Shown here: piece after piece, positions 1,586-49,568 of the stretch
Layout of the letters: each line of letters begins with the position of its first letter
Position numbering within the stretch: position 1 is the first letter of the stretch
IMG/VR virus record: IMGVR_UViG_3300030447_000318
Reading direction: 5' to 3' (one strand)
Length of the DNA stretch: 64,000 nt
Source: a virus
Made by a program: the position numbers and the translations under genes
Notes under the pieces: generated by a model
Seen by the model: only the letters and a program-made list of their open reading frames with translations
What the model was told of the DNA's origin: nothing
Database searches by the model: none

Positions 1586-2371
1586 CTACTCAAACACCTT
1601 TACAAACTTCTCATAGTTACCATCTCTACCATTTGGAACAGCAAATACAACAGTATCGAAGCATTTATGAATAGTAGTTAAATATTCTTTAAATACATTC
1701 GCTACTTCTGTTGCATCTTGACCAAAAACCCCACAACCATAAGCTCCTAAAATAAGAGTGCTCACATTATTATCTTTTGCCATATCAAGAACAAATTTAA
1801 TTCGACTTCTTAATACTTTAGTATTCTCTTCGTCTGACACGTTCTGATATTTCTGCGCAACCGACTTATTTGGAGCAGCACAAGTAATAACGCTACACTC
1901 TATGTGGCTATTCTCTCTAAAGAACCAAACACCAGGAGAAAATAATCCTCTGTTCAAATATAAAGCCTTATTCTTGTGTCGATTATTCCAATCATAAAAC
2001 TCTAATACAAACTGACTCAACACATTGTACAAGAATGATTCGTGACATAAGCACTCTTCCTGTGCCTTACTACCATTTAGAAACATTCCACCTGGATTTT
2101 TATATGAAGAAAAATTAAGAACTGCTGTACTTGGATTGCCGTATTTCATTACAGCGCCTACACTATCAATATTCTCTACAATAATCTTGGTATCTTTGTC
2201 TTCGATATCCTCTTCAAAATCCCTATTAAATGAATCTGTATCATAAATTTTTGTTGCAGAAATAGCAGTCTGAATACAACGACCATATTTATTCTGCATC
2301 TCTTTTGTATGTTTGCGAGCAGTTTCTGCTCTCTGTTCTTTATTCTGCCAATATTCTTTTATATATGCCAT
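1586..2371 (-). CDS. macro-domain / bacterial-type PARG-like protein (TIGR02452/DUF2263-like)
   Basis: C-terminal signature ...TLILGAYGCGVFGQDATEVANVF... matches the LGAWGCGVFGNDP motif of TIGR02452 macro-like proteins. Confidence 0.55.
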   Translation of the reverse strand: MAYIKEYWQNKEQRAETARKHTKEMQNKYGRCIQTAISATKIYDTDSFNRDFEEDIEDKDTKIIVENIDSVGAVMKYGNPSTAVLNFSSYKNPGGMFLNGSKAQEECLCHESFLYNVLSQFVLEFYDWNNRHKNKALYLNRGLFSPGVWFFRENSHIECSVITCAAPNKSVAQKYQNVSDEENTKVLRSRIKFVLDMAKDNNVSTLILGAYGCGVFGQDATEVANVFKEYLTTIHKCFDTVVFAVPNGRDGNYEKFVKVFE

Positions 2372-2492
2372 TTACTTATCATTCCTTTCTATATACAACC
2401 TTAATAGCTCATTGTTTCTATCAATCAAATGATTTACTTCTTCCTTTAATTCTTTATTCTCTTTTTCAAGTGTAGTTATTCTATTTCTCAAC

Positions 2493-2675
2493 TCATCTTC
2501 CGTTGAAAATTTCTGAGTTCCAATCTGCTTCGCCTAAAATTTTCTTTCTTAATGAGTTCCAACCATCATCATAACCATCGCATTCAGAAGTTTCAATGCC
2601 CAAGTAATGTTCATTTGTTAATAGATCTACATATATTTGATTGTCAGGTGAGTTATAATCACAATGGTTACACAT
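2493..2675 (-). CDS. hypothetical small protein
   Basis: 60-aa ORF. A coiled-coil-like reading frame without a start codon continues downstream at 2372-2490 in another frame. Confidence 0.3.
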   Translation of the reverse strand: MCNHCDYNSPDNQIYVDLLTNEHYLGIETSECDGYDDGWNSLRKKILGEADWNSEIFNGR

Positions 2676-2677
2676 AT

Positions 2678-3604
2678 TTATTCTCCAAAAATAATCTTCT
2701 TAGCCCAATTCATAGTTGCAGAACCACACATCTTACCAAAGAATTCACCAGCTTCGATAACTAATTCATTCTCTTCTTTTACACAATCCTCAAAAATTCT
2801 CTTAGGTAGATTCTGTACAACAATTCTCATGTCCTGTGGCTCAATCTTTTGAGGTAAAACACCCTCATCAATCATTTTGTATAATTCTTTTTGAACACGA
2901 TTCTTTGTGACAATCTGCTCTACAATTTCAGAAGTCTTTGCTTTAGCTGCTAATTTCTGAGGATCTTCTACTTTCTGTCTGTGATTATCTTTCTTGATTT
3001 CACTAAGCTGTGAATTTACAATCTTTAATACAAATGGAGTTCTTGAGTTTAGGTTGTTAAGTTCTGTCTGATTCTTAACGACAATTCCTTCAGGTACATC
3101 AACCGCAATATCTGACTTGTGCATAAATGACATACAATGCTCCCAAGAGATAAACTCTCCATCATAAAATGTCTGAACATATCTCAGATTTAATTCATCA
3201 GCAAGTCTCTTAACCTCTGATTGAGGTAAATAACATTCATTCTTTTTGTCATATACATCGTAAAAATATGATTTACCATAAGCTTCTGGAATATATTTAA
3301 TAGTATGTTTTGTAAGCCACTCCATGAAAAATACATAATTTGGATATTTTTGAAATGGTTCAACTGCCAATGTCTGTACCCAATTCCAGAATCCATTTAA
3401 TGTGTTGTTATAATCAAGAGTCTGCCTTCTCGAAAATGCAACTAACTTATTTGTTTCTTTATCATAAGCAATAGCTGAATTGCTTCCATCTACCTTTTCC
3501 TGAATTACAATATGATCTCCTACATGGAAACCACCTGTATTCGCTACTGTTAATTCCGTATCTTCCTTAATACGTGAAATATCCATAAATTTCTTCTGTT
3601 CCAA
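2678..3604 (-). CDS. ATP-dependent RNA ligase (Rnl2-like nucleotidyltransferase)
   Basis: Motif I EKVDGSN (KxDG lysine adenylation site), motif IV-like EGIVVKN and motif V-like VLKIVN. Size 308 aa. Confidence 0.55.
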   Translation of the reverse strand: MEQKKFMDISRIKEDTELTVANTGGFHVGDHIVIQEKVDGSNSAIAYDKETNKLVAFSRRQTLDYNNTLNGFWNWVQTLAVEPFQKYPNYVFFMEWLTKHTIKYIPEAYGKSYFYDVYDKKNECYLPQSEVKRLADELNLRYVQTFYDGEFISWEHCMSFMHKSDIAVDVPEGIVVKNQTELNNLNSRTPFVLKIVNSQLSEIKKDNHRQKVEDPQKLAAKAKTSEIVEQIVTKNRVQKELYKMIDEGVLPQKIEPQDMRIVVQNLPKRIFEDCVKEENELVIEAGEFFGKMCGSATMNWAKKIIFGE

Positions 3605-4310: not shown

Positions 4311-4562
4311 ATCTACAACTTTACCCATACTCTTATTCTCCTATCTGATCTACAATACTCTGTAACTTATCAATATATATCTGAGCGTCTTCCTTGTTGA
4401 AAATCTTAAAATCACATGGGACAATAGTAGCTGCGCAGCTTTACTCACATGTGAACATTTTCCTTTCCTTTGTTTTTGTATTTATATTGTTATATTCTCT
4501 TGTTTGTCCTAAATATTGTATAGTTTTCGTGACAAACCAAGAAACCAAAAATTCATCTTAAT

Positions 4563-30057: not shown

Positions 30058-30087
30058 TTTCTTATTCTCCTTTCTTACTGTAAATAA

Positions 30088-30160
30088 CAGGGCTAATCGG
30101 ATTCGAACCGATGAATGCAGAGATCAAAACCCTGTGCCTTACCACTTGGCGATAGCCCTA
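30088..30160 (-). tRNA. tRNA-Gln (anticodon UUG)
   Basis: Minus-strand sequence AGGGCTATCGCCAAGTGGTAAGGCACAGGGTTTTGATCTCTGCATTCATCGGTTCGAATCCGATTAGCCCTG folds as a cloverleaf. It has a 7-bp acceptor stem, U8, A14, GG in the D-loop, anticodon loop TTTTGAT (anticodon TTG) and a GGTTCGAATCC T-arm. No encoded CCA. Confidence 0.8.
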
Positions 30161-34463: not shown

Positions 34464-34801
34464 GCTGACACCCCATTAAGTTGATTTTTAATTCTAATAA
34501 CTTCATCTAAAGCACTTGTTAGAGAAGCTTCGTGCTTTTCTCTATACAACTCAACTGCTTTAACATAATTACCAACTCTGATACATTCTTCTACTGTTGG
34601 TTCAAGAATTTCTCTCTTTATACCTCTACAAGAAGCTGCGTATTGTCTTAGCGCAGCTAAATCATCACATGGAATACCCTTTTTATGGTTTACATTTGAA
34701 ATCAAACTTAACTCATAATTGGTAATAATGCCTCCATTTACCAGTTCAAAATACAAAATCTTATTCATAACTCTCATCCTTTCTATATATTTACATTGCA
34801 A
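34460..34801 (-). CDS. hypothetical protein
   Basis: 113-aa ORF. Confidence 0.4.
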   Translation of the reverse strand: MQCKYIERMRVMNKILYFELVNGGIITNYELSLISNVNHKKGIPCDDLAALRQYAASCRGIKREILEPTVEECIRVGNYVKAVELYREKHEASLTSALDEVIRIKNQLNGVSA

Positions 34802-36170
34802 TAAAGTTATCTACATCATTCTTCATCACTAAGTAATTCTCTTTTTGGTCTTTGATGTATGTATTGTTTTTATTAAAGTAATCGACGAACCAATCTTTTA
34901 ACTCAATTTCTTTTTCAAAACTGTAAGCTACAAGAGATAATAAAGATAGTCTATTTTCTTTTTCTAATAGTTTTGAGCTGTTGTCTACTTCGACAGTATA
35001 ATCGTCTAGCATTGAACTAAACAATTCCATTCTATCTTCATCTACTTCGACAGAAGTAACGTCTGTTACAAACTGTTCTATTTCTTCATTTGTATATTCT
35101 CTACTTGGTTTTGGAATTTCCTCTTGAAAGTATTCTTTCATTAACTTTTCAAGCATATCTAATTTTGCAAAGACAACCTTTTTATCTTTGCTATTCTTAT
35201 CCTTATCGTATGTATTAAAAGTTTTATCCTCATATTCTGAGAATGTTTTGTTATGTAAGTTATTCTTAAATTCTAAAAGGAAGTCATTAAATCTCGCAGC
35301 TTCTATTTTATAATCCAAGAATTTATGGAACAAACTAAAGAAAAGGAAACTATTCTTTACATTGAATAATTTACCTGTTTCTTCATCAACAATATTTGCC
35401 AACATGTCTAATTCGTTGTTCAATGTATCAAACTCTTCTTTACTTGCATTTTCATTTAAGTGTTTGAATAAAGATTTCCCTCTTGTATATTCTTCAGCAT
35501 GAAACATTATTGTTATAGCTTCATAGACAACTCTATTAAGCTTTCCGTTTTTCAATGCTGCTTCTCCATAATCTCCACAGTTTTTAAAGAAATTATTATT
35601 AATTGTATCTTTTATATATGTAGCAATATTTGACATTGGAAGAATACTCTTTTCTTCTGCGTTCATACTTGTTTGTCTATTGTATCTTGCCATATGATAT
35701 GCTATTTCTTCGTCTGTACAATCTAAATGTTTAACTACATTGATTGGATAACTGTCGAAAGCATCCTGCAATTCTTCGGGTAAATCTTTAAACCATTTAC
35801 CTCTTAAATCGTATTCAACTACTTTCATTTCTCCGTTTATACACTGTTGATAATACACAAATGGCATTTCTAAGCTCTTACTTATTCTAAAAGCACCATT
35901 TCTGTACTCTTCAAGTGCAGTCAATCTCTGCAGTCCATCAATTAGCCACAAAATAAAATCTGTTTTATTTAAGATTTGCTCACAAATTTTAAGTGAATCT
36001 AAATCTTCTCCCTTTATAATAGTAGAGACTAGACCACTTTTTGCAGTATTTTGCCAACGGTCAGCATGTCTCTGTAAAGGATGATTTTTATTTAACTGTC
36101 CTCTCTTAAACATTTTTAATAAAACTTTAACCATGTACGTATCTGTTTTTGTCTTGTCTCTACCAAGCAT
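34791..36170 (-). CDS. DUF262 (ParB/Srx-fold, GmrS-like N-terminal domain) protein
   Basis: Hallmark DGQQR-type motif present as IDGLQRLTAL. Size 459 aa. Confidence 0.5.
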   Translation of the reverse strand: MLGRDKTKTDTYMVKVLLKMFKRGQLNKNHPLQRHADRWQNTAKSGLVSTIIKGEDLDSLKICEQILNKTDFILWLIDGLQRLTALEEYRNGAFRISKSLEMPFVYYQQCINGEMKVVEYDLRGKWFKDLPEELQDAFDSYPINVVKHLDCTDEEIAYHMARYNRQTSMNAEEKSILPMSNIATYIKDTINNNFFKNCGDYGEAALKNGKLNRVVYEAITIMFHAEEYTRGKSLFKHLNENASKEEFDTLNNELDMLANIVDEETGKLFNVKNSFLFFSLFHKFLDYKIEAARFNDFLLEFKNNLHNKTFSEYEDKTFNTYDKDKNSKDKKVVFAKLDMLEKLMKEYFQEEIPKPSREYTNEEIEQFVTDVTSVEVDEDRMELFSSMLDDYTVEVDNSSKLLEKENRLSLLSLVAYSFEKEIELKDWFVDYFNKNNTYIKDQKENYLVMKNDVDNFIAM

Positions 36171-38811: not shown

Positions 38812-39029
38812 AATTTCTTCTTCCGTCATAGCGTCACCTTCTTCTATATTTTTATTAAATGTATTTTTAACTACATTCATTTGTATTTGTAGCTACATAA
38901 TAACACATAATTGTTGTAGTGTCAAGTACATTTTTAGCAAAAAATGACTATATTTTGTATTTTTAACTACATTGGTTTGACATCAATAATAAACGATGAT
39001 ATAATCAAAAAACATAAGGAGGCGAATTT

Positions 39030-39815
39030 ATGCTGATTAGCGAAAAATTTGAGCTTATTAGAAAAGCGAACAATTTAACAAAAATGAAGTTCTGTGACAA
39101 AGTAGGAATGTCTCGATCTCATTACGACAGTTTACTTGCTGAAAAAAACAGCGATAAAATTATCAATAAGACTACCAATATATCTATAATCAATAGCATA
39201 TGTTATTTATTTAATGTGGATAAACAATGGTTGACTAATGATGAAAGCAATATTGATTTTTTTGATAAAAAATTTAATCAACAAATTGTTGATAATTATA
39301 TGTTGCTGTCAGAAGCAAGCAAAAATATTGTTGATAATCTTATTGATGGTTTATTGGAATTAAATAACAATCAACCGTCAACTACTCAACAGCCAGTAAT
39401 CAGATTAGCTGTATATGACCAACCAGTATGTGCTGGTAATGGTAACTTCATTACGGACGCAACAAAAACATTTAAGGATTTCCCTAATGCCCCGTCTGAT
39501 GCTGATTTCGCAGTTAGAGTTCAAGGCGATTCCATGACACCTGCTTACAACGATGGTGATTTAGTGTTTGTTAAATCTACCGACACATTGAATAACGGAG
39601 ATGACGGTATTTTTATCGTAGATGGCGATATAACGCTAAAAAGATTTATGGGTAATGAATTAATCCCATTAAATCCAAAATACTCTAAAATAAGCCAAAA
39701 AGCTATAATTCAAGGCAAAGTGGTTGGCATCGCAGAACATCACTCTGATTTAGAGGCTGAAGTTTTAGATATTGTAAACCAAGACAAGCCGCAAAACTTA
39801 AAAAAATCTATTTAA
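39030..39815 (+). CDS. cI/LexA-like repressor (N-terminal HTH plus C-terminal S24 peptidase)
   Basis: N-terminal HTH. C-terminal VRVQGDSMTPAYNDGDLVFV...LKRF (Ser/Lys dyad). Confidence 0.7.
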   Translation: MLISEKFELIRKANNLTKMKFCDKVGMSRSHYDSLLAEKNSDKIINKTTNISIINSICYLFNVDKQWLTNDESNIDFFDKKFNQQIVDNYMLLSEASKNIVDNLIDGLLELNNNQPSTTQQPVIRLAVYDQPVCAGNGNFITDATKTFKDFPNAPSDADFAVRVQGDSMTPAYNDGDLVFVKSTDTLNNGDDGIFIVDGDITLKRFMGNELIPLNPKYSKISQKAIIQGKVVGIAEHHSDLEAEVLDIVNQDKPQNLKKSI

Positions 39816-47021: not shown

Positions 47022-47498
47022 CTAAAAAGGAACATAATCTTCATATTTTTCATACAACTTCTCTAAGTAAGTATCACAGTCTTCTACTATTTTATCTATT
47101 ACATCACAAAATTCAGAAAACGATTCTTCTTCATATTCCCACATATCTCTACCTGTACATCTAAATACGTAATGTTTCCCTAGTTCATCGTCATTTTTAT
47201 TTTCTTCTTCTGCTTTTCTTTCCCACTCTTCTTTTTCCTCGTCTGGTAAATAATCATAATCAATCGCTAAAGGAATCCAACGACTCTCAATCAAGAACTC
47301 TGGAACTGGAAGATTTTCTTTTCCGCAGAAATCTCTGAAATTATAGTCTGAATCGCTCAAGAAAAAATCTAACGATTCAGCATGGCTACTATCGGGGAAA
47401 TATATATCATGACGATATTTAGACAGTATTCTTTTGTGACGTTTTAAAGTATCAATTAAACTTGTTTGACTTTCTGTTAACATTGTTTTGTTTTCCAT
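47022..47498 (-). CDS. acidic hypothetical protein
   Basis: 158-aa ORF, Glu/Asp-rich. Confidence 0.45.
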   Translation of the reverse strand: MENKTMLTESQTSLIDTLKRHKRILSKYRHDIYFPDSSHAESLDFFLSDSDYNFRDFCGKENLPVPEFLIESRWIPLAIDYDYLPDEEKEEWERKAEEENKNDDELGKHYVFRCTGRDMWEYEEESFSEFCDVIDKIVEDCDTYLEKLYEKYEDYVPF

Positions 47499-47549
47499 AT
47501 TTATTACCTCCTTAAAACAAACAATTTTATTAATTTTTTAAAAATGCCC

Positions 47550-47645
47550 TTGACAAAATGAAAAGTGATTTCTACTATCGTAGATGAAGAGTAGGAAAAT
47601 CCTACAATATTGCAAGACGAGGTTTATACCTCGTCTTTTTTTATT
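47550..47645 (+). CRISPR. solitary Cas12a-type repeat unit 1 (promoter -35, repeat hairpin, 28-nt segment with second hairpin, terminator)
   Basis: CTTGACAAA at 47549-47557 (ttgaca core 47550-47555). Repeat ATTTCTACTATCGTAGAT at 47568-47585 (stem TCTAC/GTAGA). Terminator gacgagg-tttata-cctcgtc followed by T7 at 47615-47643. The -10 position is ambiguous for this copy. Confidence 0.5.
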
Positions 47646-47691
47646 CATAATCATAACAAAATTTTGTCAGGGTGTGAACCACACCCTATTA

Positions 47692-48033
47692 TCAAGCTAA
47701 GCAATTAACTATTGAATAATATTCTTTTCTTTCTACCATCATTATTACAACTTTTGCATTTTTATCATCATACCATTCCTCAAAATCGGCAAACCCATCA
47801 TTAGCCATTATAGAGAAGGAATAATCTTTTTCATCCATAATTTGATAATTTGCGACTTCTAAATTATTAAATAATTGTTTTGGGATGTCATCTTCGGTTA
47901 TTTCTTTAATTTTGTCTTGATGTATGTCATACACAGAATAATGTTCATCTTTTGGTATATATATCTTAAAATCAACAATGGTTTCATTTTTATTTTTCTC
48001 TAATATTTTATTATAAAGTTCTAAAATTTTCAT
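47692..48033 (-). CDS. hypothetical protein
   Basis: 113-aa ORF. Confidence 0.45.
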   Translation of the reverse strand: MKILELYNKILEKNKNETIVDFKIYIPKDEHYSVYDIHQDKIKEITEDDIPKQLFNNLEVANYQIMDEKDYSFSIMANDGFADFEEWYDDKNAKVVIMMVERKEYYSIVNCLA

Positions 48034-48070
48034 ATTTCTACCTCCGCCCTCATTAACAAAAATAATATTC

Positions 48071-48493
48071 CTAAAAACTTAAATAAACTTCTGAGTCATC
48101 TTCATCGTATTGGTTCATAGCGTCTACAGCATCAGCCATATTATCGTAAGTTCCTAAAGTCTTATAAGACGGTGTTTCTATAAGACTAATATAAATCTTT
48201 GAATAATCAGAGATTTCTCCTCCAGAAACCCACTCACCATCTTCATCATATTCATTTTCTTCCAGATAATATTCATCTACGAGATAATATGTTCCTTTTG
48301 CACCAGATAATTCAGATATACTCGTTTTGTGTTCATTTAATCTTTTTTTAGCTCTATCTTCCTCATTTTCATTGAAACTTTCAATTAATTCTGAAACTTG
48401 ATCATCATTTAAAAGAGTGACACCCTCTTTTATTTCTTTTCTATCTCTATATGGGATTTCTATACTTGCTTTTCTAAGTTCTATTTTTTTCAT
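48071..48493 (-). CDS. acidic hypothetical protein (start MKKIELRK with RBS gaggagg)
   Basis: The longest-ORF start is a TTG. The ATG at about 48493 has a perfect SD. Confidence 0.45.
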   Translation of the reverse strand: MKKIELRKASIEIPYRDRKEIKEGVTLLNDDQVSELIESFNENEEDRAKKRLNEHKTSISELSGAKGTYYLVDEYYLEENEYDEDGEWVSGGEISDYSKIYISLIETPSYKTLGTYDNMADAVDAMNQYDEDDSEVYLSF

Positions 48494-48525
48494 ATCACTT
48501 ACCTCCTCAAAAATAAAAAACTTTC

Positions 48526-48643
48526 TTGACAAATTAAATATTATGTAATATAATATGCAATGTAATTTCTACTATAGTAGATAAAAAACATATTACAACA
48601 GGTTAGAGAGACGGGATTTTGCATCCGTCTCTCTTTTATTTGC
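48526..48643 (+). CRISPR. solitary Cas12a-type repeat unit 2 (TTGACA-17-TATAAT promoter, repeat TAATTTCTACTATAGTAGAT, 23-nt spacer-like segment, terminator)
   Basis: -35 at 48526-48531. -10 at 48549-48554. Repeat at 48563-48582. 23-nt segment aaaaaacatattacaacaggtta at 48583-48605. Terminator gagagacgg...ccgtctctc plus T-run at 48606-48640. Confidence 0.6.
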
Positions 48644-48650
48644 TCTAATT

Positions 48651-48923
48651 TTAAGCCCAAACATCAGTTACTTTATACCCAATTAAAAATCCATTGTTGT
48701 TATATAATTTTTCGACCTGTACAGATATTACTGTAGCATCCTTACTATTTACATAGCATTGCCACACCTGTCCATCTTCACCAATAATTACTTCTCCGTT
48801 AGAGGATGAGTCGGTTTCGAAGTCTTCAAAACCACAAATAATCTCCTCTGCAAGCTCTTGTTCCTCGTATTCCTTACCTACTAACTTTCTCAAATTTTCC
48901 ATAACTTGTTCTAAAGTAGTCAT
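48651..48923 (-). CDS. hypothetical protein
   Basis: 90-aa ORF. Confidence 0.45.
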   Translation of the reverse strand: MTTLEQVMENLRKLVGKEYEEQELAEEIICGFEDFETDSSSNGEVIIGEDGQVWQCYVNSKDATVISVQVEKLYNNNGFLIGYKVTDVWA

Positions 48924-48989
48924 ATTACTTGCCTCCTCAAATCTAATAATTTTTCTCTCTTTCTAAGTATATTTTGAAAAATTTTATAC

Positions 48990-49145
48990 TTGACAAACTA
49001 AATATATTATGTATAATAAATATTGTAACACAACTTGTGTTGCTGATTTCTACTTAGCGTAGATGAAATGCCCACATAGTGTATTGGTAGTAAATGTTGG
49101 GCGACAGAGGGCGTAGTATCCAGATTGGCTACGCCCATTTTTATT
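48990..49145 (+). CRISPR. solitary Cas12a-type repeat unit 3 (TTGACA-16-TATAAT promoter, repeat ATTTCTACTTAGCGTAGAT with Lb-like 5-nt loop, ~44-nt segment, terminator)
   Basis: -35 at 48990-48995. -10 at 49012-49017. Repeat at 49046-49064. Terminator gggcgtag...ctacgccc plus ATTTTTATT at 49109-49145. Confidence 0.55.
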
Positions 49146-49148
49146 GTT

Positions 49149-49568
49149 TTACTCTATTGCGTCTCTAAGAATTTGAATAAAATTCTCGATGTTTTTTACA
49201 TTTTCTTTATCCATTTTTTTACCCCATTCTTCGACCTTTGGAAGACGTATCCAGTCTTCATAATCATAGTCATCAGGAGAAACTGGGCAATCGAAAATTT
49301 CGCATAAATATTTTCCATCATACCCAAGGTTGTGTTCCATATTAGAATATATATGAGGATAAATGTCTATAACGTCTACTGAGTTTGGAACTATAAAATC
49401 ATAGTCTCCTACACAATATTCATCTAAGATACTGCCTATTTCTTCATATATCTCATTCTCATAATGTGTTGACAAAAAATCTATATAGCTAACAGATGAA
49501 CTTAATTCTATAATGTCTTTTTCGATTTTATCAATTTGTGTTAAACTTAAATTATATTTATTTTTCAT
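49149..49568 (-). CDS. hypothetical protein
   Basis: 139-aa ORF. Confidence 0.45.
   Translation of the reverse strand: MKNKYNLSLTQIDKIEKDIIELSSSVSYIDFLSTHYENEIYEEIGSILDEYCVGDYDFIVPNSVDVIDIYPHIYSNMEHNLGYDGKYLCEIFDCPVSPDDYDYEDWIRLPKVEEWGKKMDKENVKNIENFIQILRDAIE

Follow-up and report, generated by a model that had tools for sequence, protein, structure and literature searches.

A solitary Cas12a handle unit in a human-gut phage as a candidate RNA anti-CRISPR against type V-A systems

A phage transcription unit resembling an almost mature Cas12a crRNA

A short transcription unit, here termed U2, was identified on the + strand at 48526-48643 of the window, by which is meant the whole stretch of 64,000 nucleotides that was analysed (IMG/VR virus record IMGVR_UViG_3300030447_000318). 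We propose that with U2 the phage encodes an RNA anti-CRISPR directed against type V-A systems, belonging to the solitary-repeat-unit class and acting by competition or sequestration (the Racr mode), a reading to which we give about an even chance of being right. The transcription of U2, the loading of its RNA into Cas12a and the inhibition of immunity are all predictions. The reading is supported by the non-random anatomy of the unit, its location in a phage with neither cas12a nor a CRISPR array, the identity of its handle, the occurrence of such handles in at least 118 IMG/VR contigs and published precedent.

In the proposed mechanism, a maximal-strength sigma-70 promoter would start the RNA 1-3 nt ahead of a 20-nt Cas12a handle, and the RNA would then run through 22-23 unstructured nucleotides to an intrinsic terminator. 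As transcription would begin at the handle and end after a segment of 22-23 nt, the primary transcript would already be almost a mature crRNA. The host Cas12a would bind the U2 handle as it binds those of its own crRNAs, the resulting complex would recognise no invader, and an excess of U2 RNA would displace phage-targeting crRNAs from Cas12a, protecting the phage. Two sister units with structured tails, U1 and U3, would act as further decoys.

Anatomy of U2

U2 fills a 157-nt gap between two ORFs on the - strand and is composed of the following elements.

48526-48554, + strand: promoter, with -35 TTGACA (48526-48531), a 17-nt spacer and -10 TATAAT (48549-48554), 12/12 to the sigma-70 consensus
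48563-48582, + strand: psi-repeat, the 20-nt Cas12a 5' handle TAATTTCTAC-TATA-GTAGAT, with its stem at 48568-48572 / 48577-48581
48583-48605, + strand: guide-like segment aaaaaacatattacaacaggtta, 22-23 nt, A/T-rich, with a low-complexity seed and no predicted structure
48605-48643, + strand: intrinsic terminator, a stem-loop at 48605-48634 (10-11 pairs) followed by TTTTATTTG

The promoter, the handle (TAATTTCTACTATAGTAGAT at 48563-48582) and the terminator hairpin with its T-run (48605/6-48643) all lie where the first-pass annotation had located them. That annotation had also placed the transcription start 4-8 nt upstream of the handle; the predicted start lies closer to it, at a distance of 1-3 nt. 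From the end of the -10 at 48554 and the usual 7-nt rule, we infer a start site at 48560-48562, just ahead of T48563. The segment between handle and terminator had been given as exactly 23 nt, and 48583-48605 does have the canonical length of a guide; the G+C-rich terminator hairpin begins at 48605/6, and since A48605 can open its stem with an A-U pair, the single-stranded part is 22-23 nt. The predicted fold of the whole RNA consists of the handle hairpin, an unstructured guide and the terminator (z = -4.3). The earlier description of a ready-made crRNA-like layout, requiring little or no 5' processing, was borne out, and this anatomy matches the architecture of the phage unit CracrVA1 (10.1101/2024.10.29.618823).

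The 3'-terminal 19-20 nt of the U2 handle fit the form of a Cas12a crRNA handle, (U)AAUUUCUACU-loop-GUAGAU with a 5-bp stem. The handle was compared with the repeat of a real cas12a-cas4-cas1-cas2 array (L295). In the U2 haplotype with a TATT loop the handle is identical at 20/20 positions to the 3' end of this cas12a-linked repeat, the last 20 repeat nucleotides being that very handle, and the window copy, with a TATA loop, agrees at 19/20. U2 shows CRISPR-repeat mimicry in both sequence and structure with a promoter less than 250 bp upstream, the features of a solitary repeat unit or Racr. It also carries a psi-repeat, a psi-spacer and a rho-independent terminator on a mobile element, the features of a type V-A Cracr.

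Sister units and departure from chance

Three handle units were found in the window, U1 at 47566, U2 at 48563 and U3 at 49044. All are on the + strand, opposite to the genes, and all are intergenic. The elements of U1 and U3 are as follows.

47550-47644, + strand: U1, with -35 TTGACA at 47550 and handle TGATTTCTACTATCGTAGAT at 47566-47585, the -10 being deleted in this haplotype
47586-47613, + strand: U1 tail, a 28-nt spacer-like segment with its own hairpin at 47591-47605
47614-47637, + strand: U1 terminator, followed by a T-run
48990-49143, + strand: U3, with a perfect promoter at 48990-49017, a 5' hairpin at 49025-49043 and handle TGATTTCTACTTAGCGTAGAT at 49044-49064
49065-49108, + strand: U3 tail, a structured 44-nt spacer-like segment with a hairpin at 49070-49102
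49109-49136, + strand: U3 terminator, followed by a T-run

The motif TCTAC-N3-6-GTAGA occurred three times in the window against 0.12 expected, and none of 100 shuffles reached three; a terminator was found downstream of every copy (3/3, all on the + strand and in intergenic gaps). Perfect promoters of the form TTGACA-N16-18-TATAAT also numbered three in the 64 kb, against 0.24 expected, and two of the three belong to U2 and U3. The three isolated handles are spaced 480-1000 nt apart, each with a terminator of its own, and the units have little in common besides the 19-20-nt handle and the promoter core. The third perfect promoter, in the stretch 38977-39030, drives the gene for an S24 (LexA/CI-like) repressor, the only long ORF on the + strand.

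In the window copy of U1, approximately 20 nt have been lost between the -35 and the handle, taking the -10 away. The sole remaining hexamer at the correct spacing, TACTAT, lies within the handle, so transcription from it would start past the handle, and U1 of this haplotype may be a decaying copy. Among the relatives, U1 has the promoter TTGACA-17-TATACT, 7 nt ahead of TAATTTCTAC, in L296 (about 4440-4520, - strand), the same streamlined promoter-at-handle design as in U2; in L030 (about 520-600, - strand) it has TTGACA-17-TATAAT together with a 5' hairpin.

U2 is the only one of the three window units with an unstructured tail of guide length. In the U3 tail hairpin, relatives exhibited CA to TG and C to T changes with pairing kept through G.U, while in the U1 tail the stem GTAGG/CCTAC was kept, the loop varied and the 5' seed differed in the L030 type. 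To judge from these substitutions, structure and not sequence seems to be conserved in the tails of U1 and U3, which look like structured decoys and not like guides.

The three units lie antisense to a long co-directional gene block, between ORFs, and each has a strong promoter and a terminator of its own. Such a disposition would also suit small RNAs acting independently of Cas proteins, as antisense, convergent-transcription or insulator elements that regulate the - strand operon, with the likeness to the handle being incidental. We regard this as highly improbable, because the element common to U1-U3 is precisely the 19-20-nt Cas12a handle and the same solitary handle recurs in at least 118 unrelated viral contigs. 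Furthermore, the U1-U3 RNAs overlap no adjacent ribosome-binding site or start codon, and Rfam returned no family for the units at gathering thresholds, with noise only at E up to 10.

The phage and its neighbouring genes

The window has a G+C content of 30% and nearly all of its genes lie on the same strand. Its products include proteins of phage replication (a DNA polymerase III alpha homologue, RecJ, DnaB and a primase), a tyrosine recombinase, a DUF6017 replication protein, the S24 repressor, a PemK toxin, a PARG and an RNA ligase, and a YonV_C (SPbeta-type) protein is encoded just outside it. The closest annotated phages are Clostridium phage c-st and Clostridioides phage phiCD211, with a polymerase identity of 42-43%. 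The element belongs to the SPbeta/phiCD211-like gut phages. The window contains no CRISPR array, no cas12a and no ORF of Cas12a size, the largest ORF (1078 aa) being the DNA polymerase III alpha homologue, and its handles stand apart from any array beside cas12a-cas4-cas1-cas2.

Identical proteins have been deposited as 'Siphoviridae sp. ctXZx16' and 'Caudoviricetes sp.' and were found in hundreds of human-gut assemblies; for some of these copies the contigs are as long as 0.3-1 Mb, pointing to an integrated prophage. A nucleotide search against annotated phages and plasmids gave no match useful for host assignment, and walking outward with the window proteins reached phage genes only and no host genes. 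Protein searches led to phage-plasmids from Clostridia and DUF6017 plasmids from Bacillota. A gut bacterium belonging to Bacillota is the probable host.

The units are interleaved with five small acidic ORFs in a variable, cassette-like region (47022-49568).

47022-47498, 47692-48033, 48071-48493, 48651-48923 and 49149-49568, - strand: five small acidic ORFs, pI 4.0-4.6

None of the five gave a Pfam, PHROG or PDB sequence match, and no known Acr was detected near the units by Pfam, PHROGs, PDB sequence or PDB fold search. The 140-aa protein encoded beside U2 (48071-48493, - strand, pI 4.3) was modelled by AlphaFold with a pLDDT of 93 as mostly beta; the model had no PDB fold match (best TM below 0.3), and homologues with 51-55% identity are present in Lachnospiraceae and Acetatifactor MAGs. 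The five unannotated acidic ORFs possibly encode anti-defence proteins. A microbial PARG, an RNA ligase, a tRNA-Gln(UUG) and a protein listed by a database source as DUF262 are likewise phage-encoded (1586-3604, 30087-30160, 34791-36170), and relatives have, in addition, a PemK toxin and a Fic protein nearby; all of these are candidates for further defence or counter-defence functions.

Variation and recombination among relatives

Fifteen copies of U2 were recovered, representing six haplotypes. U1-type units were present in all relatives, U2 was missing from the L030/L057 type and U3 was missing from several, and cassettes have been gained and lost among the relatives across the 47022-49568 region. 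The Racr mode draws further support from this setting, a cassette-like region in which relatives differ by gain and loss of the units and in which units have recombined at the handle.

Approximately 12 variable sites were identified in U2 from the -35 to the T-run, located in the -10, the leader, the handle loop (TATA or TATT) and the terminator apex; the apex differs by haplotype with the pairing of the stem kept (A-U to G.U). Across the six haplotypes there were no variable sites in the handle stems and none in the 23-nt guide. Under uniform mutation the probability that a guide of 23 nt in 115 escapes all of ∼12 sites is P about 0.07, and the invariance is thus a weak, suggestive sign of guide function.

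One relative, L018 (IMGVR_UViG_3300029215_000002, 2944-3100), carries a single chimeric unit in which the upstream part of U1 is joined at the handle to the guide and terminator of U2, and ∼1 kb with two ORFs has been deleted between the joined units. The chimera is a deletion by recombination between two handles, as occurs between CRISPR repeats. Handle-handle recombination of this kind, and the existence of viral contigs with true V-A arrays (L087), would fit a reading of the handles as relics of a captured CRISPR array or as homology patches for integration into a host array. We give this reading hardly any credence. Every handle is served by its own consensus promoter, positioned at the processing site, and by a terminator one guide length away. 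The repeat lacks its 5' half, haplotypes from many samples have kept the units, and 20 nt is short for homologous integration.

Solitary handles in other viral contigs

IMG/VR was scanned for ATTTCTACTATNGTAGAT, which yielded at least 118 viral contigs, almost all with a single copy. Among the matches listed, a terminator was present within 130 nt in 52 of 85 distinct solitary units, and in 35 of these 52 it started 20-29 nt past the handle. The guide-length tails among the matches listed were mostly hairpins, unstructured tails like that of U2 being a minority, and the spacing from handle to terminator was conserved even where the tail cannot serve as a guide. In several solitary units the -10 ends exactly 7 nt ahead of ATTTCTAC, and a start at the 5' end of the crRNA therefore appears to be a recurrent viral design. 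Large ORFs near two of the viral units (L107 and L043) had been suspected of encoding Cas12a and gave no Pfam match.

Comparison with known Cas12a-binding RNAs

Viral solitary repeat units (SRUs), first noted by Faure et al. 2019 (as cited in PMC10651486), have been described as RNA anti-CRISPRs (Racrs) which sequester Cas proteins (Camara-Wilpert et al., Nature 2023, PMC10651486). They are often located directly downstream of promoters, and RacrVA1-3 inhibit MbCas12a, the Cas12a of Moraxella bovoculi (PMC10651486). U2 resembles these units in being a solitary repeat mimic in a phage, just 3' of a promoter, unlinked to cas genes and situated in a variable region of small ORFs, and the action proposed for it, sequestration of a Cas protein, is the same. 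However, Racrs are defined by function and require no guide-like sequence downstream, whereas U2 has an unstructured, conserved guide of canonical length, followed at guide distance by a terminator; the structured tails of U1 and U3 bring these two closer to plain decoys. The RacrVA units were tested on the Moraxella bovoculi enzyme, whereas the host of U2 is probably a gut member of Bacillota.

CracrVA1 (Liu et al., bioRxiv 10.1101/2024.10.29.618823) is a phage unit in which a single psi-repeat is followed by a single psi-spacer and a rho-independent terminator. Processing leaves a handle of 19 nt joined to a guide of 21 nt. CracrVA1 competes with crRNAs and, by mimicry of the host RNA CreR, directs Cas12a to repress its own promoter via a 10-nt match; with its spacer mutated it still competes with crRNA for Cas12a (10.1101/2024.10.29.618823). 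The same preprint expects V-A systems under CreR control to be buffered against pure sequestration (10.1101/2024.10.29.618823). U2 and CracrVA1 have in common that they are phage-encoded, with their own promoter, a psi-repeat that keeps a handle of ∼20 nt, a spacer-like segment of ∼21-23 nt and a rho-independent terminator. They differ in that a Ruminococcus cas12a promoter contains, beside a TTTA PAM, a 10-nt match to the CracrVA1 spacer, while neither a CreR counterpart nor a promoter target was found for U2 in the searches of GTDB representatives and of four sampled cas12a loci. The CracrVA1 preprint describes arrays only for types I-C, I-E and I-F, whereas U2 is one of three V-A units with separate predicted transcripts.

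CreR itself is an RNA of the host that regulates Cas in type V-A loci (Liu et al., bioRxiv 10.1101/2023.03.10.532045). It shares with U2 the form of a degenerate mini-CRISPR, in which one good psi-repeat gives a normal 5' handle, and the CreR spacer binds without cleavage. CreR lies upstream of the host cas12a and targets the adjacent promoter, whereas U2 is in a phage, far from cas genes. Compared with a canonical Cas12a crRNA or an engineered single-crRNA cassette, U2 has the same 19-20-nt handle (AAUUUCUACU-loop-GUAGAU), a guide of ∼23 nt and no tracrRNA. Natural crRNAs are cut by Cas12a from multi-repeat arrays; U2 differs in its predicted start 1-3 nt before the handle and in being closed by a terminator.

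Searches for targets of the guide

A role as a targeting guide, to be recognised by protospacers beside a suitable PAM, had been implied in the first-pass annotation. It was not upheld: protospacer searches with a PAM check in the phage, IMG/VR and metagenome contigs gave matches at the level of chance only, the unit is located in a phage, and the window has no cas12a or array.

With up to three mismatches allowed, the guide of each unit matched only the units themselves within the window, and in ∼130 kb of related phage DNA the search for seeds produced only the units themselves and chance seeds, and no target. One site in the window, 39007-39016 (AAAAAACATA, right after the -10 of the S24 repressor promoter), is identical to the first 10 nt of the U2 guide, with AATC in the PAM position. 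This identity is probably a coincidence, since a seed of such low complexity is expected about once per window (estimate). In IMG/VR the exact 19-mer of the U2 guide occurred only in the relative L018, a search with GTAGAT plus the 10-nt seed revealed no other solitary-repeat family with the U2 seed, and the U3 handle plus seed had no match. In metagenome contigs, TTN plus 17 nt of the U2 guide gave 47 matches, a number consistent with chance, none of them in a gut mobile element; the best were in two homologous freshwater contigs, at 22/23 with the poor PAMs ATTT and TTTT. A site with a TTTA PAM upstream of a 1072-aa ORF (L145) was considered as a target and rejected, the ORF being a SusC/TonB receptor.

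A canonical-length unstructured spacer after a perfect handle is what would be expected if U2 were a true crRNA, with which host Cas12a would cleave a competitor phage or plasmid or the host chromosome. Conflict between mobile elements is the role proposed for viral mini-CRISPR arrays. These are marked by two flanking repeats and a full-length match to a mobile element, and the units described here have one repeat each. Such hijacking of Cas12a is very unlikely, given that the exact 19-mer is confined in IMG/VR to L018, that the 47 metagenome matches are consistent with chance and include no gut mobile element, that the ∼130 kb of the phage itself holds no match, and that U2 has a single repeat and no acquisition genes.

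Searches for a CreR counterpart

Among 185,579 GTDB species representatives, a search for the handle plus AAAAAACATA detected no CreR-like element and a single chance match inside a gene, and hence neither a CreR twin nor a prophage copy in the representative genomes. Host cas12a loci were sought with LbCas12a; low-GC candidates were picked by amino-acid composition and four distinct loci were fetched. These four low-GC loci, a sample far too small to be decisive, had no CreR-like unit, no PAM-flanked seed of at least 7 nt upstream and no spacer against this phage. The U2 seed, AAAAAACAUA, is so simple that chance matches of 7-10 nt are frequent in AT-rich DNA, and partial matches are therefore uninformative without the true host genome.

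These results bear on an action like that of CracrVA1, in which the PAM-proximal ∼9-15 nt of the U2 guide would pair with a TTTV-flanked site in a host promoter, such that Cas12a would silence the gene without cutting while the RNA also competed with crRNAs. The U2 sequence for pairing would be AAAAAACAUAUUACAACAGGUUA, and the genes silenced might, tentatively, be cas12a, as for CracrVA1, or another defence gene. We consider this Cracr mode a possible reading, less likely than the Racr mode. The architecture of U2 is that of CracrVA1, its unstructured guide of 22-23 nt is unchanged in six haplotypes and was retained in L018, which recombination has reduced to a single unit, and the absence of full-length targets is a prediction for a regulator that works through partial matches. 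However, no CreR-like element was found in the GTDB representatives and no other viral solitary-repeat family of IMG/VR has the U2 seed, while none of the four sampled low-GC cas12a loci (0/4) has a CreR-like unit or a PAM-flanked seed of at least 7 nt upstream. In addition, the abundance of 7-10-nt chance matches to so simple a seed in AT-rich DNA makes its specificity doubtful, and the conservation statistic for the guide is weak (P about 0.07).

The Racr mode is favoured because of the negative target and CreR searches, the low complexity of the seed and the structured sister units. Some points count against it. The U2 guide is unstructured, of canonical length and invariant, which is better predicted by guide function than by a pure decoy; no known Acr protein is encoded nearby and the four sampled cas12a loci are without spacers against the phage; and the Cracr preprint expects pure sequestration to be buffered (10.1101/2024.10.29.618823).

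Discussion

The units might also divide the labour between them, with U1 and U3 as pure Cas12a sponges and U2 as a programmable guide that makes Cas12a a repressor of a host gene. We think this unlikely. The gene under U2-guided repression could then be another defence locus or lie behind a promoter relevant to the choice between lysis and lysogeny; it would not be a CreR-controlled cas12a promoter, because no CreR counterpart was found. If this division of labour were true, the use of crRNA mimics by phages would extend beyond anti-CRISPR to the reprogramming of host genes in general.

The principle of the favoured Racr mode is already published, RNAs of this kind having been described in 2023-2026, and U2 is a clear new example. 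Noteworthy are the presence in a single, highly prevalent gut prophage of three V-A units with separate predicted transcripts, the handle-to-handle recombination, the predicted start at the handle, and the occurrence of guide-like and structured tails side by side. If active, U2 would provide, in ∼115 bp of promoter, handle, guide and terminator, a minimal natural cassette that yields a near-mature Cas12a RNA without array processing. Given that hundreds of human-gut assemblies contain the prophage, suppression of Cas12a by RNA could, if true, be common in the gut, and would be relevant to the efficacy of phage therapy and to Cas12a-based CRISPR antimicrobials. The guide-like tail of U2 and the structured tails of U1 and U3, borne on the same handle, offer a natural comparison that could separate the Racr and Cracr modes.

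Two further types of viral unit were observed during the IMG/VR scan. In a large family of gut-virome units (among them L005, L017, L026, L067, L077, L099, L111, L009, L010, L015 and L058) a hairpin followed by GTGGATT(N)AAAC is situated ∼15 nt upstream of the V-A handle, and the handle is followed on its 3' side by a conserved hairpin (TCGAG...CTCG) and then a terminator. We take GTGGATT(N)AAAC to resemble the type I-C CRISPR repeat, and the units of this family may be composite mimics of I-C and V-A repeats in one transcript. In the other case, L087 (1295-1800), a true multi-spacer array of V-A type was found, with at least eight copies of the repeat GTTTAATAACCCTATATAATTTCTACTATTGTAGAT, and this array adjoins phage structural genes (MuF).
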